IMG/VR virus record: IMGVR_UViG_3300035070_002905
Coordinates: 1 to 64,000 of that record
From: a virus
Strand: one strand, 5' to 3'
Length of the DNA stretch: 64,000 bases
Both the position numbers and the translations under genes were made by a program. This document shows positions 2,895-8,366 of this stretch, piece by piece. A model generated the notes under the pieces. That model had not been told where the DNA came from, did no database searches, and saw only the letters and a list, made by a program, of their open reading frames with translations. The number at the start of each line of letters is the position of its first letter. Positions within the stretch are counted from its first letter, which is position 1.

Positions 2895-3770
2895 ATGAAA
2901 AAACTTCTAGCTCTTTGCCTGTTGCTGACAGGTTGTACAAGCCCTCAGACAGAGAGCTGGAAAGAGGAGGCGGCTTCGGCCGCTTCTTGTCCTGCACCTG
3001 TCACCGTCGAGGTTCCCGTCGAGAAGATCGTCGAGGTCCCTGTTGAAAAAATCGTAAAGGTTCCCGTCGAGAAGATCGTCGAGGTTCCCGTGGAGAAAAT
3101 CGTCTATGTTACCAAAACCGAAACAGCCCAGTGTCCCAGCCCCAAGCCTGCCCCGAGCCCTAGTCCTAAAAAGCCTAAAGCCCCGAAGCCTAAAGCACCG
3201 AGCGAACAGCCATCCATCAAGGCACCAAAGCAGTACAACCACCCGCTAGACGATTCGGATAAGATGGTGTTCATGATGGGCACCGACGACTACGGACGCT
3301 ACCTGTACGGCGAAGGGGCTATCGCTCCTGGAACGTACAAGAAATTCCTTAAGTATGTAGCGTACTATAAAGAGCAGGGTACTCCTGTAAGCCGCTTAAT
3401 GATGAACAGCCCGGGCGGTTCTATGCGAGAGGGTATTCTAATCGGAGAGTACTTACACGAGAACAACTGGACTACCGATAGCGATAAGCATATGAGCTGC
3501 TATTCTTCATGTGGGATTATCTACATGGGGGGCGTTAAGAAACGCATGCAGTCTGGAGCTCAGGTAGGATTCCACCGTCCGTATATGCCGGGACAGGCAG
3601 ATACTCCGGCGTTCATCAAAGATATGTACCATACGTATAAGCCCTATTGGGAGTACGTAAATGGCTCGCCGTTATTGTACGATGAGTTCATGACTAAATA
3701 CGACCGTGATATGATGCTAGTTATCATGGCGGAAACTGCAAGACAATTTATTAATGTTGAGGTATATTAA
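2895..3770 (+). CDS. lipoprotein with VEVPVEKI repeats and C-terminal ClpP/crotonase-like domain
   Basis: Lipobox LTGC; 4x VEVPVEKI; Pro/Lys linker; NSPGG, CYSSC and VGFH motifs. Confidence 0.7.
   Translation: MKKLLALCLLLTGCTSPQTESWKEEAASAASCPAPVTVEVPVEKIVEVPVEKIVKVPVEKIVEVPVEKIVYVTKTETAQCPSPKPAPSPSPKKPKAPKPKAPSEQPSIKAPKQYNHPLDDSDKMVFMMGTDDYGRYLYGEGAIAPGTYKKFLKYVAYYKEQGTPVSRLMMNSPGGSMREGILIGEYLHENNWTTDSDKHMSCYSSCGIIYMGGVKKRMQSGAQVGFHRPYMPGQADTPAFIKDMYHTYKPYWEYVNGSPLLYDEFMTKYDRDMMLVIMAETARQFINVEVY
3006..3104 (+). repeat. four 24-nt tandem repeats encoding VEVPVEKI
   Basis: gtcgaggttcccgtcgagaagatc and variants. Confidence 0.9.
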
Positions 3771-5095
3771 TGCGTAATAAACTTAAAGAATTTCTAGGGA
3801 TTACTCTCCCGGAACATCCAATGATGTGGATCACATTGTTGGTAATGGGTGCTCTAGTAGTATCCTTTAACGTGATGGGGTATGATATCCTATTCGCTGC
3901 AGACCCGTGGTTCGGCATTGCCAGCCCGTTCGGAATCATGCTAGGCACCTGTGAGGTAGCCGTGCTCCTCTGGATGTCCTCGGTGATCAGCGAATGGTAT
4001 AAGTCCAGTCGCATCCTAAAGGTCCTAACCATTCCAGTATTCCTGGCGTTCTCCTTCCTATGCTACTCGGGTATTAACAGCTACCTGACGACTCTGGCTA
4101 CCGCCGAGATTCAGAAGGTAGAAGAAGTTAAGCTGCAGACCGGTCATAACGAAGAGTACATGATCAAGCTTACCGATGAGAACCTAGATCTATCTACTAA
4201 GCTAGACGAGGCTCGTACCGTACGTGATCGTCTAGATGCGTCTATCGCTGCAGCCAACGGTAGCATCAAAGACTTAGACTTCAAGATCAGCGAGCGTATG
4301 CTGAAGGTCGCTAAGTGTGACGCAGTAGCCGACTGTCGACGTGCCGTTAAGGGTTTTGCAGATCAGAAGGTACCGTACCAGAAGAGCGTCTCTAATATGA
4401 ACGCCGATCGAGAGCTAGTGAATACTCGTATCGTTCGCATGGAGAAGCAACTTAACGAGAACGCCGACGAGATCCGTACGCTTACTAAGAAGTCGGTAGT
4501 TCAGCTAAACGATCAGGCCGGCACCGAGTCCAACTTCACGATGAAGAAAGATTCATACGAGAAGATCGTTCTATCGGTTACCGGTCTATTCGGCTGGGTT
4601 CCAGAGAATCCCTTCCAGGTATTCATTGGATTCGTCTCGGCGTTGATCTACCCGATCTACTTCTTCCTGAACCTATTCCTAAGCCTAAACAGCGAAGGTA
4701 ATCAAGAAGTACGTCGTAAGCGTCAGTCCGATAAGGAAGCTCGTCTAGGTCTATTCCAAGAGCTGCGTCTCGACCTGGAACACCATAAGCTTAATCAGTA
4801 CCGTAAGGCCGCTAAGTACTTCCGAGTATGGGCTGCCCGTCGTACTAAGATTAAGTCTGTCGAGAAGCTGGTAGAAGTAGAAGTACCTACAGATACCATC
4901 GTAGAGAAGCGTGTAGAGGTCCCTGTTGAAGTCATTAAGATTCAGAAGGTAACCGAGCAGGTAGTTATTAAAGAGCCTGAGGTGATCATCCACGAACGTC
5001 TGGTACCTGTACCGGAGAATGCATCTGCAGCTGAACTTAAGGAGTTACTGAATGAAGAGCCTCGATCTGACGCAACTCAATCAGAGCAATCGTAA
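3770..5095 (+). CDS. multi-pass membrane protein with long coiled coil and VEVPVE-type C-terminal repeats
   Basis: About 3 N-terminal TM segments, heptad region, further TM, VEVEVP/VEVPVEV motifs. Confidence 0.75.
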   Translation: MRNKLKEFLGITLPEHPMMWITLLVMGALVVSFNVMGYDILFAADPWFGIASPFGIMLGTCEVAVLLWMSSVISEWYKSSRILKVLTIPVFLAFSFLCYSGINSYLTTLATAEIQKVEEVKLQTGHNEEYMIKLTDENLDLSTKLDEARTVRDRLDASIAAANGSIKDLDFKISERMLKVAKCDAVADCRRAVKGFADQKVPYQKSVSNMNADRELVNTRIVRMEKQLNENADEIRTLTKKSVVQLNDQAGTESNFTMKKDSYEKIVLSVTGLFGWVPENPFQVFIGFVSALIYPIYFFLNLFLSLNSEGNQEVRRKRQSDKEARLGLFQELRLDLEHHKLNQYRKAAKYFRVWAARRTKIKSVEKLVEVEVPTDTIVEKRVEVPVEVIKIQKVTEQVVIKEPEVIIHERLVPVPENASAAELKELLNEEPRSDATQSEQS

Positions 5096-5462
5096 GACGG
5101 CACTCGAAAAGGCTTCTGCACGTGATCGTCAGGAGTCTAACCGAGAGGTGCGCCATGACCTCGTCCAGTACAAGGCCCAGCGTGCCACTACAATCGATAA
5201 GGATAAGCGCCTACTGAAGCGTGTACTCCTTACGATTGGCTGTCTGTTTATCGCCGGATGTGCCGCACTAGCACTGCTATACGGATACATCCACATTACC
5301 ACTACGCCGATCATTGAAGAGGTTCCCGTGGAAGTCGTCCCTGAAGAATGCTCTCAGGTACGTCGTAACGGAAAGATCTACATGAACTGCGATGGCGTTA
5401 AGGTCGATGGGGTTACCACCCTCGGCCCTAACGTCGATAACGTCCCGGAACTATTGGAGTAA
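5052..5462 (+). CDS. single-TM membrane protein
   Basis: One TM segment, EEVPVEVVP motif, two Cys. Confidence 0.7.
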   Translation: MKSLDLTQLNQSNRKTALEKASARDRQESNREVRHDLVQYKAQRATTIDKDKRLLKRVLLTIGCLFIAGCAALALLYGYIHITTTPIIEEVPVEVVPEECSQVRRNGKIYMNCDGVKVDGVTTLGPNVDNVPELLE

Positions 5463-5465
5463 TTT

Positions 5466-5897
5466 ATGAAAGGCTTTATGAGAAACTCGTTTAACGATCA
5501 AGGTCGCACCGACCGTTCTTACTACTGGCACATTCAGAGTCAGTTCTTGATAATCGGCATGCTACTACTCATGTCATCCTTCGTAGTGGCTGCCAGCTTC
5601 TACGTCCAGGTTACCGATGTAGTACCGTACATCGAGCAGGCCATGTGGTTCCTACGTGGAGTAGTCGCCCTAGGGATTCTAGGCTGGATCGCTACGGCGC
5701 CCGCCCTGATCACTCTTACAGTTCGACGTGCCCGGGACTCGGGTATTAACATCACCTACGCATACATCCTAGGTATCCTGGATGCCCTTAGTATTCTACT
5801 GGGTCCTGTCTGGCTGATCGTCCTACTGCTCAAACTCTTGACTATGACGCATAAGTCTAAGGTCGAGCCTAAACAACTTCCTATACTAGCGGAGTAA
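5466..5897 (+). CDS. DUF805-like inner membrane protein
   Basis: GRTDRSYYW and LTVRRARDSG motifs; 3-4 TM segments. Confidence 0.7.
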   Translation: MKGFMRNSFNDQGRTDRSYYWHIQSQFLIIGMLLLMSSFVVAASFYVQVTDVVPYIEQAMWFLRGVVALGILGWIATAPALITLTVRRARDSGINITYAYILGILDALSILLGPVWLIVLLLKLLTMTHKSKVEPKQLPILAE

Positions 5898-5900
5898 CTT

Positions 5901-6284
5901 ATGTGGAAATATCTACTTGCACTCGTCCTGAGCTGCGCCTTCGTGACTCATGCAAATGCACACAGTCATTCGCCGACATCTTTCGGTGGTCCTGACAATC
6001 CTCTGGATGCCGTTACGGTAACTGGCGTTCAGACCGTTACGATTACCGTAGGGAACCTCAACTCGTTCCCTCAGTCATACGAGATCTATGTCGACGACGA
6101 ACTAGTAGGTACTACTTCTGAAGTAGCGCCTAACCTGTTCCGTAAGCTGCCAATTCCTGTCAAACTAAGTAAGCCGAATACACCGGAGATTCATAAGGTG
6201 TGTTCTATTAGCGTCGCTAAAGAAGGCGACATGTTCCGTTCTAAGATTTGTACTGAAGCCAAATTATACTGGAGTAAGAAATGA
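5901..6284 (+). CDS. secreted Ig-like beta-sandwich protein (possible pilus chaperone-like)
   Basis: Signal peptide ending ANA; beta-strand pattern; two Cys near C-terminus. Confidence 0.55.
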   Translation: MWKYLLALVLSCAFVTHANAHSHSPTSFGGPDNPLDAVTVTGVQTVTITVGNLNSFPQSYEIYVDDELVGTTSEVAPNLFRKLPIPVKLSKPNTPEIHKVCSISVAKEGDMFRSKICTEAKLYWSKK

Positions 6285-6649
6285 AAAAGATTATCATAGC
6301 AATCCTAGCAGTCTTCACGTTCGCTGCATGTCAACCTGCTGTAGCAGACACAATCCGCACCGCCGATGGCATTAGCTGTTCGTTCGATGCCGACGACTCT
6401 CCTTACGAAGTCGAAACGTATATCGAAAGCGGTAGTGACGATTACAACAATAACTATAACGATGGGTATAGCAATACCGATCGTGATGATCATAAGGTCG
6501 GAGTTAAGCTAACGTACAAGTTCGGCGGCCCTAAGCGTCTGAATTGTGACACGTTATATCAATTAGAGCTCCGTGACAAGAGCGCTAAAGTTAAGCAGCT
6601 AGAAGCAAAGATTAAGATGCTTGAAGCTGCACAAGATATTAAATGGTGA
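6281..6649 (+). CDS. secreted protein with C-terminal coiled coil
   Basis: Signal peptide; two Cys in the mature part (DGISCS, RLNCDTLYQLEL); C-terminal helix. Confidence 0.6.
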   Translation: MKKIIIAILAVFTFAACQPAVADTIRTADGISCSFDADDSPYEVETYIESGSDDYNNNYNDGYSNTDRDDHKVGVKLTYKFGGPKRLNCDTLYQLELRDKSAKVKQLEAKIKMLEAAQDIKW

Positions 6650-6805
6650 TCCTGTGGAATTAGAAACTGTAAAAACCATCTGTGAAATCCTGAACTACGC
6701 TGCAGCATTTGCCGGTCTGGCTCTGTTCGTAGTTCTCATGGGCAAGGCCGATGAAGCCCTGCATAGCAACAACGGTACTATTAATTAAACATCCTACGCA
6801 GAACT

Positions 6806-6823
6806 TGTTATAAGTAATGTGTA
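6806..6823 (+). promoter_or_regulatory. putative promoter motif A (TGTTATAAGTAATRTGTA)
   Basis: One of five near-identical copies, each just upstream of an RBS. Confidence 0.7.
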
Positions 6824-6862
6824 CAGAGGAATACTCCTCACCCTAACGATCTGGAGATCAAC

Positions 6863-7339
6863 ATGAAAAAATCTATCCTAGCTCTACTTGCTGTTTCTGC
6901 ACTTTCTACTTCTGCTTTCGCTGCTGGTATTAACAAAGGTGACTCTGTCTCTGACGACCTGCGCTTCCAGGAAAAGGTAGTTCGTGTTTGCGGTATCAAG
7001 TCAGCAAGCGATGTAGGCACAATCAAGTTCGGTAATGAAAACGGTACTCAAGAAGCTGCCGCTAAGTTCATCGTAGTTGATAATGGTGCTCATAAGTCTG
7101 ATGGCCAGACTGAAATCTCTATCAATACAAAGCGTATGTCAGAGAACTTAGAGCTGGCAGGTGCGACTGTGAAGTACGCAGTGAACAACATCTACGATCC
7201 GCGTGATAGCATTAACCACGCTCCTGTTTCAGTAGGTGTTACGCAAGAAGTATTCGCAACTGTTGACTCTGATAAAACCCTAGTGAATACTGGCGTTGCA
7301 CGAATCAAAGCAGTTGTAGAAGTACATTGCGGTAACTAA
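6863..7339 (+). CDS. secreted fimbrial-subunit-like protein 1
   Basis: Signal peptide; LRFQEKVVRVCGI N-terminal strand; C-terminal VEVHCGN. Confidence 0.6.
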   Translation: MKKSILALLAVSALSTSAFAAGINKGDSVSDDLRFQEKVVRVCGIKSASDVGTIKFGNENGTQEAAAKFIVVDNGAHKSDGQTEISINTKRMSENLELAGATVKYAVNNIYDPRDSINHAPVSVGVTQEVFATVDSDKTLVNTGVARIKAVVEVHCGN

Positions 7340-7404
7340 GAACCTTGCAAGGGGCGTAGAGATGCGCCCAACTTTAACTTAAATTTAATGATCTGGAGAT
7401 CAAT

Positions 7405-7824
7405 ATGAAAAAGACTATCCTAGCTGTAATCCTTGCTGCAACTTCATTCGGTTCTTTCGCTGCTACTTCTGACAATCTTACATTTACTGCTACCGTTCCT
7501 GCGACGTGTGGCATTGCGATTACCGACGGTGCAGGAACTCTACTCTTTAAGGATGATACCGGTCCTACGGATACAGAGTTCACCCTATCAAGTAATGTAG
7601 CCGACGGTAGAATTAATGTAACGCCTTCTATCACCACGAAAGGTGGTATCGATAAAGACGACGTTGCGTTATCCGTAGCAGGAGGTGGAGTTCTAACTGA
7701 TAGCTCTACTGTCCACCTCGGTGCCGGTGAGTATAAAGCTCGAGCTAGCGTAAATACCTCTAAGAGTAGCGTGGCTGCCGGTGTGGTAGAAGCTGTAGTA
7801 ACTCTAGAAGTAAGCTGTAAATAA
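7405..7824 (+). CDS. secreted fimbrial-subunit-like protein 2
   Basis: Signal peptide; LTFTATVPATCGI...GTLLF; C-terminal VTLEVSCK. Confidence 0.65.
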   Translation: MKKTILAVILAATSFGSFAATSDNLTFTATVPATCGIAITDGAGTLLFKDDTGPTDTEFTLSSNVADGRINVTPSITTKGGIDKDDVALSVAGGGVLTDSSTVHLGAGEYKARASVNTSKSSVAAGVVEAVVTLEVSCK

Positions 7825-7831
7825 GTAATAT

Positions 7832-7884
7832 CCCCGTAGAACCCTAACCCGGTTCTACGGGGCCTTCTTTATTCTTTTTCTTTT
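7832..7884 (+). terminator. rho-independent terminator
   Basis: 12-bp stem CCCCGTAGAACC/GGTTCTACGGGG followed by T-rich tract. Confidence 0.7.
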
Positions 7885-7895
7885 CGGAGATCCAA

Positions 7896-8366
7896 ATGAA
7901 AAAACTAATTCTAGCTACAATCCTAGCTGCGACTTCACTCACTTCTGTTGCAGCAACTGACTCTAAGGGCCTATCCTTCAGCCATGTAGTCGACCCTACT
8001 TGCAGTATAGTCATTGAAAATTCTACTGGCTCTATCGAGTTTAACGACTCGGAAGTAAGAGAAGATACCATGGCTTGGGTGAAAGTACGTAGTAATGTAT
8101 CTAGTCACCTTGTTACTGTAAACATGTCAGAGGGGACTGCGTCAAGTAGTCTACAGGGGATGCCGTTCGACTACAAATTTTCCGGATCCTCTCAGGATAT
8201 AGGTAACGGTGTATACGTGGATGCGGGGGAAGATTTACAGGTTCCTATTAATCAGTATACTGGAGAGACTAGCTTGTGGGTAGCAGCATCAGTTAAAGCA
8301 GACTCGGCCTCTCTAGGTTCTGGTACTCACACTATTACCTCGACAATCACTGCAAACTGTAACTAG
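7896..8366 (+). CDS. secreted fimbrial-subunit-like protein 3
   Basis: Signal peptide; LSFSHVVDPTCSI...GSIEF; C-terminal ITANCN. Confidence 0.6.
   Translation: MKKLILATILAATSLTSVAATDSKGLSFSHVVDPTCSIVIENSTGSIEFNDSEVREDTMAWVKVRSNVSSHLVTVNMSEGTASSSLQGMPFDYKFSGSSQDIGNGVYVDAGEDLQVPINQYTGETSLWVAASVKADSASLGSGTHTITSTITANCN

Follow-up and report, generated by a model that had tools for sequence, protein, structure and literature searches.

Classical Pap and Fim pilus subunits end with a C-terminal motif, composed of a glycine at position -14, alternating hydrophobic residues and a penultimate tyrosine, the last of which is recognized by classical chaperones. Donor-strand polymers that are both chaperone- and usher-free are also known, namely archaeal cannulae (bioRxiv 10.1101/2024.12.30.630787) and TasA (bioRxiv 10.1101/2022.03.14.484220). 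We describe here five genes of a large, uncultured phage that encode three pilin-like proteins and two further exported proteins, with no usher. They lie at 5901-8366 of a 64,000-nucleotide stretch (positions 1-64,000 of IMG/VR record IMGVR_UViG_3300035070_002905, hereafter the window), and the whole phage genome is 172 kb and ~95% complete. The five genes are the phage copy of a widespread, undescribed module made of three exported components, which we call A, B and C, the last being present in three copies (C1-C3); literature searches returned no description of this A/B/C module. In the list of open reading frames (ORFs), all five are open and co-oriented, as follows, with lengths in amino acids (aa):

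5901..6284, + strand: component A, an exported, single-domain immunoglobulin (Ig)-like β-sandwich of 127 aa, with a leader at 1-20, a mature protein that begins HSHSP, and a conserved pair of C-terminal Cys
6281..6649, + strand: component B, an exported protein of 122 aa (leader 1-22) with two invariant Cys, whose β-strand region is followed by a loop rich in Asp, Asn and Tyr, then by a C-terminal coiled coil
6863..7339, + strand: C1, a pilin-fold paralogue and the first gene past a promoter-like box (158 aa; leader 1-20)
7405..7824, + strand: C2, a pilin-fold paralogue and the protein that we modeled (139 aa; leader 1-19)
7896..8366, + strand: C3, a pilin-fold paralogue located past a terminator-like hairpin (156 aa; leader 1-19)

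A previous sequence-only reading of this region had claimed Sec signals for the three pilin-like proteins and secretion for the two others, and inspection agrees, each of the five proteins opening with a Sec-type leader whose start is basic, whose core is hydrophobic and whose cleavage site is of the A-x-A type. That reading had also portrayed the genes as a module of three paralogues with two secreted partners. A gene-neighborhood search upholds this, since the trio is conserved in other phages and in bacterial chromosomes, A, B and C being adjacent and co-oriented in the window, in Vibrio phages D479 and 2.275.O, and in bacteria. In D479 (258 kb), A-B-C lie directly past rIIA/rIIB, and their products are 51% (A, D479_0229), 66% (B) and ~31% (C) identical to ours. 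In 2.275.O (349 kb; host V. cyclitrophicus), A-B-C correspond to NVP2275O_139-141, in an unrelated neighborhood. The B gene is found in only 2 of 50,697 deposited phage genomes, D479 and 2.275.O, and a megablast of the region against deposited phages gave no match.

As for bacteria, the B gene was detected in 36 of 301 sampled Vibrionaceae genomes (~12%), and the six loci that were inspected are all A-B-C(-x-C) operons. The Aliivibrio trio proteins (WP_122032324-WP_122032328) are annotated merely as hypothetical. Aliivibrio-type operons also encode, between two C genes, a conserved exported protein of 136-139 aa (L102:483-893, L101:437-856), which matches none of the A, B and C profiles, nor those of the g1-g6 genes described below. 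Vibrio ishigakensis harbors A-B and five C-family genes, one of which encodes a 307-aa two-domain form, adjoining the atp operon. Its A ORF (L090:7545-7778) is just 77 aa long and a near-identical 147-aa form exists elsewhere (P0017), which could reflect a frameshift or a pseudogene. The order is A-C-B in Endozoicomonas and Salinisphaera sp. G21_0, and in Nitratireductor chromosomes C-A-B is repeated in tandem, two or three times, among metabolic genes (L092, L093, L095, L096).

C1-C3 are paralogous (BLASTP 2e-12, 2e-8, 2e-4), and the mature C proteins consist of 120-138 aa after leaders of 19-20 aa with an A-x-A end. All three contain the motifs that had been claimed for them, that is, L-x-F-x-x-x-V-x-x-x-C-x-I, G-[TS]-[IL]-x-F and a Cys in the penultimate region, and these are near-invariant over 39 family members. 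In these 39 proteins, the segment preceding the core is conserved, with a large hydrophobic residue at position 6 in 90%, F/W8 in 39/39 and V/I12 in 97%. Further conserved sites are C16 (36/39), within a Cys16-Gly17 pair, and G25 (37/39) and F29 (38/39), which form G25-x-I-x-F29. In the last strand, hydrophobic residues alternate, Gly(-14) is kept in 37/39 and the penultimate residue is a Cys, C(-2), in 36/39. Its glycine and alternating hydrophobics do fit the Pap/Fim rule, but the penultimate residue is a Cys where that rule expects a Tyr. The two Cys mostly co-occur, both being present in 38 of 52 proteins and both missing in at least 7, including that of Endozoicomonas, and this co-retention fits, as expected, a putative Cys16-Cys(-2) disulfide joining the first core strand to the C terminus. 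In the C proteins of Endozoicomonas and Salinisphaera (L002:9539-9991, L089:7401-7991), both Cys are replaced (Tyr and His).

A word-indexed homology search with C2 returned only C2 itself, and an exhaustive profile search yielded 43 C relatives, mostly of 140-165 aa, some with a long N-terminal helical extension. Scans of C1-C3 against Pfam and PHROG identified no family, the weak Spackle and Cor matches spanning the signal peptides alone. In the long forms (264-547 aa; P0025, P0028, P0034, P0038, P0045; L090:8906-9829), a helical N-terminal domain precedes the pilin-like domain; they recall two-domain tip adhesins, yet the added domain is helical.

Structural modeling was performed on mature C2 with AlphaFold2 (AF2), using the C-family alignment, and produced a model with a predicted local distance difference test score (pLDDT) of 95.7 and a predicted template modeling score (pTM) of 0.82. 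When this model was compared with the PDB by Foldseek, the first 11 rows were chaperone-usher (CU) pilins, with CfaB, FimI, PapH, CS17 and FimG as top matches, CfaB being the best (E 4e-3), and template modeling (TM) scores of 0.45-0.58. An independent search of 48,161 chains with VIA-align is led by CfaE/CfaB, CS17, SafA, FimA, the FimH pilin domain and CsuE, with Z of 6.3-6.8. CanA matches the model with Z 6.3-6.4, and bundling-pilus and thread subunits are also among the structural matches. A second look with VIA-align aligned donor-strand-truncated FimG (residues 13-144) with residues 13-120 of the model (Z 7.0, 103 aa, root mean square deviation 3.2), an alignment that puts C2 residues 1-12 at the place of the FimG donor strand. 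Although conserved, residues 1-15 lie outside any strand of the monomer model. At the other end, the monomer model finishes with a strand that aligns to pilin strand F, in a comparison in which complete chaperone N-domains also score Z 6.0-6.5. The portrayal of the three paralogues as pilin-like thus stands as far as the predicted fold is concerned, since CU pilins top both aligners. Membership of the CU family does not follow from this, because the similarity is moderate (Z <= 7.0) and no Pfam fimbrial model matches.

Component A was modeled with 32 relatives in the alignment and is predicted to be a one-domain β-sandwich (pLDDT 79, pTM 0.67), in which the N-terminal ~20 aa are poorly ordered, yet conserved. 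Structurally, it matches a generic range of Ig, FnIII, CARDB and MSP domains (Z 5.3-6.8), among which the N-domains of CU chaperones (FaeE 5.7, SafB 5.6 and FimC 5.5, with YadV and CfaA in the Z 5.3-5.7 range) do not stand out. Foldseek places Caf1M and DraB at ~5e-2, and the ESM Atlas neighbors of A include PapD_N clusters (TM 0.68); no PF00345 match was found at E <= 1. Mature A is also a single domain of 107 aa, compared with two domains and ~200-230 aa in PapD-like proteins. The earlier description of the 5901 protein as chaperone-like therefore finds no specific support from AF2, Foldseek and VIA-align, which show a generic single Ig domain. A role as copper chaperone (CopC/PCuAC-type N-terminal His) was considered because of the mature His start in phage copies and a PCuAC-like Atlas neighbor, and was ruled out as a general function since Endozoicomonas and Nitratireductor carry a Gln at that site. 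Component B, which matches phrog_37374 (E 1.7e-6), is better conserved than either A or C, with relatives 66-79% identical, 36 invariant columns and two invariant Cys. That B might be a lipoprotein was ruled out, as the Cys of FAAC is not conserved and the relatives are cleaved between A-x-A and D[ST]IRT.

The module has a second, larger form. Distant relatives of B occur on at least 482 IMG/VR contigs, and in 80 loci that were fetched from these B is the fifth gene (g5) of a conserved exported block, g1-g6, of marine phages, in which g1-g4 and g6 are each found in 67-79 of the 80 loci. Hidden Markov model matches between B and g5 were obtained in 80/80 loci, and A corresponds to g4 (hhalign 94.4%, E 9e-8, 112 columns), the Cys-Cys hairpin being common to both. 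Directly compared, C and g3 are not significantly similar (hhalign 21.8%). However, the C-like proteins of Nitratireductor match both C (96.2%, E 2e-9, 138 columns) and g3 (98.8%, E 6e-17, 158 columns), controls reaching 3-4% in either case, and homology between C and g3 thus holds only via these intermediates. It follows from the three homologies that the window cassette is a three-gene version of the block core g3-g4-g5, in which C has been triplicated. The extra genes of the block are absent from the window; they encode a Cys-rich exported protein of ~180 aa (g1, phrog_20531; L008:2597-3127), an exported protein of ~290 aa without family (g2, L008:3060-3905) and a membrane-anchored coiled-coil protein (g6, L008:5240-5698). 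Genes flanking the block are heterogeneous, 5 of 55 sampled being peptidoglycan hydrolases. A candidate GH19 endolysin in another locus (L011) was not confirmed by Pfam.

An usher had been claimed to be absent, and this holds well beyond the window, since neither PF00577 (usher) nor PF00345 (PapD_N) is detectable across the 172-kb phage genome. The further suggestion that assembly might rely on an usher of the host fares less well: no usher passes the Pfam cut-off in V. ishigakensis or in the Salinisphaera genome, which both bear the trio, and two trio-bearing Nitratireductor genomes have their only usher either ~330 kb away or on a contig other than that of the trio. With none in the phage, and none or a distant one in four trio-bearing genomes, dependence on a classical usher, be it that of the phage or of the host, is unlikely.

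The C genes have a late-type promoter box of their own. Component A begins 4 nucleotides (nt) past the gene of a DUF805 membrane protein, and the stop of A overlaps the start of B as ATGA, which makes A and B the end of a tightly packed run of envelope genes, and probably the last members of an envelope operon that starts further upstream. This run includes four closely spaced genes for membrane or envelope proteins (291, 441, 136 and 143 aa, the last being the DUF805 protein, E 2.8e-7), which extend over 2895-5897 and reach A. Three additional features lie between the genes:

6654..6788, + strand: a possible small membrane-protein ORF between B and the C1 promoter box, uncertain (44 aa from GTG 6654; 55 aa if from TTG 6621)
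6805..6819, + strand: a promoter-like box, TTGTTATAAGTAATG (T4-late-like TATAAGTA), 54 nt upstream of the C1 start
7832..7884, + strand: a strong intrinsic-terminator-like hairpin between C2 and C3 (12-bp stem, 8 GC, T-rich tail)

The small ORF (6621-6788) encodes one hydrophobic helix, and its GTG at 6654 is preceded by GGTGA. It is absent at the equivalent site in D479, where the 3-nt gap between B and C leaves no room for it.

A promoter motif had been claimed directly upstream of the pilin-like genes, and the box found 54 nt before C1 is indeed a recurring one. In the form GTTATAAGTAAT (at 6807, containing TATAAGTA), it occurs five times in the window with at most one mismatch, versus 0.3 expected. 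The shorter TATAA[AG]TA has eight sites in the window (6809, 33029, 42420, 47051 and 57927 on the + strand; 63694, 56818 and 42508 on the - strand), and those on the + strand have a common extended form, TGTTATAA[AG]TAAT. All 8 sites are intergenic and 6 of them sit 7-179 nt upstream of ORFs, tail-spike-like genes on the opposite strand being among these. These boxes resemble late promoters of this phage and, because the box recurs above expectation and all sites are intergenic, it would be expected from sequence to act like a T4-type late promoter. The duplicated leaders that had been noted ahead of the C genes are also real, with exactly two copies of a 23-nt sequence, GATCTGGAGATCAAYATGAAAAA, at 6848 and 7390 (0 expected), and a degenerate third copy at 7884, ahead of C3. 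A bias for T-ending codons in C1 and C2, with C1 above the window mean, is weak and suggestive only, the genes being small.

These results lend moderate support to the reading of the locus as a pilin-like, usher-less module. How A, B and C might work together is more tentative, and we give a little less than an even chance to the scenario that we favor, namely, assembly in the envelope by strand complementation that is independent of an usher. After Sec export, C subunits would join each other, or be capped, by β-strand complementation, using their conserved L-x-F-x-x-x-V segment, at the N terminus, and a presumed groove next to the C-terminal strand, each subunit being stapled by its Cys16-Cys(-2) disulfide. 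Component A would be a binding partner or holdase of C, and B, probably an oligomer, would serve as platform or anchor in the usher's stead. At a late stage of infection, this would yield a short fiber, a sheet or a complex, located in the periplasm of the infected cell or on its outer membrane; C1 and C2 would supply most of the subunits and C3 a minor share.

Several observations weigh against this scenario. The structural scores of C2 are middling, with Z <= 7.0, TM of 0.45-0.58 and no Foldseek E <= 1e-3, and according to the guidance for VIA-align a Z below 8 may mean that only a general arrangement is shared. Complete Ig folds, in the form of CU chaperone N-domains, reach almost the same level against C2 (Z 6.0-6.5, 88 aa). 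The N-terminal segment has a high pLDDT in the monomer and may, in the model, pack on its own domain, and the Cys16-Cys(-2) staple, which links the strands flanking the groove, could hinder as well as help strand insertion. None of the 39 C-family members matches any Pfam model, including Fimbrial, SCPU and CS1 (E <= 0.01), and PDB sequence searches with the C profile, as with that of A, returned nothing meaningful. A chaperone-like function of A is possible, without specific support since its matches are generic. Finally, the Atlas monomer model of B is poor (pTM 0.34), although this would fit an obligate oligomer.

Could the same genes serve another purpose? They might encode an accessory of envelope remodeling or lysis rather than a fiber, that is, a periplasm-spanning or outer-membrane-acting complex for which the pilin-like fold is just a convenient β-sandwich. 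The succession of B and the membrane-anchored coiled-coil g6 in 79 of 80 loci of the marine block recalls an i-spanin architecture, and the peptidoglycan hydrolases among the flanking genes, the late-type box before C1 and the poor monomer model of B, which is expected for an oligomeric coiled-coil protein, point the same way. Yet chromosomal trios occur without phage or lysis context (by the atp operon in V. ishigakensis, in Nitratireductor and in 12% of Vibrionaceae), the window cassette has no g6 homologue and no adjoining lysis gene, and the genes flanking viral loci are mostly unrelated accessory genes, which makes a lysis accessory unlikely in our view. Alternatively, the C proteins might not polymerize at all and be exported binding proteins, helped by A and B, whose role would be to mask a surface receptor or a target in the periplasm, or to modify it, in superinfection exclusion or defense against other phages, their triplication reflecting diversified specificity. 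This would account for the C copies being 23-30% identical when A and B are 51-79% identical between phages, as expected of a diversifying surface, for the moron-like presence of the cassette in a different accessory region of each phage, and for the extra N-terminal domains of the long C forms. We nevertheless consider it quite improbable, as conservation in C peaks in the terminal strands, which would mediate complementation, rather than in a surface patch, a simple decoy needs no strict co-occurrence with A and B, and the bacterial operons in which 4-6 C genes occur, with a two-domain long form among their products, resemble sets of subunits.

Two other possibilities are more remote. The likeness of C to CU pilins in fold and terminal motifs is the sole argument for phage subunits entering or poisoning the CU pilus machine of the host, the alternative raised by the earlier reading, which is very unlikely given the two trio-bearing genomes with no usher above the Pfam cut-off and the two in which it is ~330 kb off or on another contig, the lack of sequence similarity to fimbrial families, and the penultimate Cys of C in place of the Tyr that classical chaperones recognize. 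That the five proteins are decoration or fiber components of the virion, their leaders not being signal peptides, is hardly credible even though Ig-like domains are common on phage particles, because canonical Sec-type leaders are present in all five and kept in every relative, and homologous operons occur in bacterial chromosomes outside prophages.

Assembly of the pilin-like subunits without an usher would, if true, amount to a novel and highly compact way of making structures of the envelope or cell surface. A broader proposition, which we regard as somewhat unlikely, is that the trio constitutes the minimal set for a hitherto unrecognized pathway of envelope assembly in Gram-negative bacteria and their phages. 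In this pathway, pilin-fold subunits would polymerize by strand complementation, a one-domain Ig partner and a coiled-coil oligomer of ~100 aa would replace the two-domain chaperone and the 800-aa usher, and phages would use it late in infection to make a structure in or on the envelope of the dying cell. The module is present in ~12% of sampled Vibrionaceae species genomes and in hundreds of contigs of uncultured marine phages, all of its members being annotated as hypothetical proteins. Lytic phages would thus, if the reading is right, spend late expression on an exported structure, for example as an aid to lysis or for exclusion, aggregation or adhesion of lysing cells. The module is experimentally tractable, since the same trio occurs in Vibrio phage 2.275.O, phage D479 and Aliivibrio operons.

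Among known systems, the subunits of CU pili (FimA/FimG of type 1 pili, PapA/E/H of P pili, CfaB/CooA of class 5 and CsuA/B of the archaic class) offer the best fold match to C (Z 6.3-7.0). Like C, they are Sec-exported proteins of ~14 kDa with a hydrophobic N-terminal segment before the core, which in C falls in the register of the FimG donor strand, and a last strand with Gly(-14) and alternating hydrophobics. In both cases, several paralogous subunit genes are found in a row and two-domain long forms occur, for C in bacterial operons. Unlike these subunits, C has no fimbrial Pfam match and a predicted disulfide between the first core strand and the penultimate residue, where Fim and Pap have a Tyr. 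Moreover, in contrast to CU systems, neither the phage nor the surroundings of the bacterial copies encode an usher or a two-domain chaperone, and polymerization of C is a proposal. As for A, the closest counterpart is domain 1 of PapD/FimC/Caf1M, likewise an exported Ig-like sandwich encoded beside pilin-like genes. However, A has one domain of 107 aa instead of two totaling ~200 aa, has no PF00345 match and finds equal matches in unrelated Ig, FnIII, CARDB and MSP domains, and it has two features that chaperones lack, a Cys-Cys hairpin conserved at the C terminus and an N-terminal tail that is conserved though poorly ordered.

CanA, TasA, archaeal threads and bundling pili provide precedents for strand-complemented fibers without an usher, and the structural matches to C2 include CanA. 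These systems differ from ours in that they have no sequence relation to C and no partners of the A or B type, and belong to archaea or to Gram-positive bacteria with no outer membrane to cross. Another close system is the six-gene block of marine T4-like phages, whose g3-g4-g5 core is homologous to C-A-B; like the window cassette, it encodes exported products only, lacks an usher and has a late-promoter box. The window differs from this block by lacking g1, g2 and g6, by its A-B-C rather than C-A-B order, and by the triplication of C. In contrast to the six-gene block, the cassette of the window represents a sub-branch that is common to Vibrio phages and the chromosomes of Vibrionaceae or Endozoicomonas.

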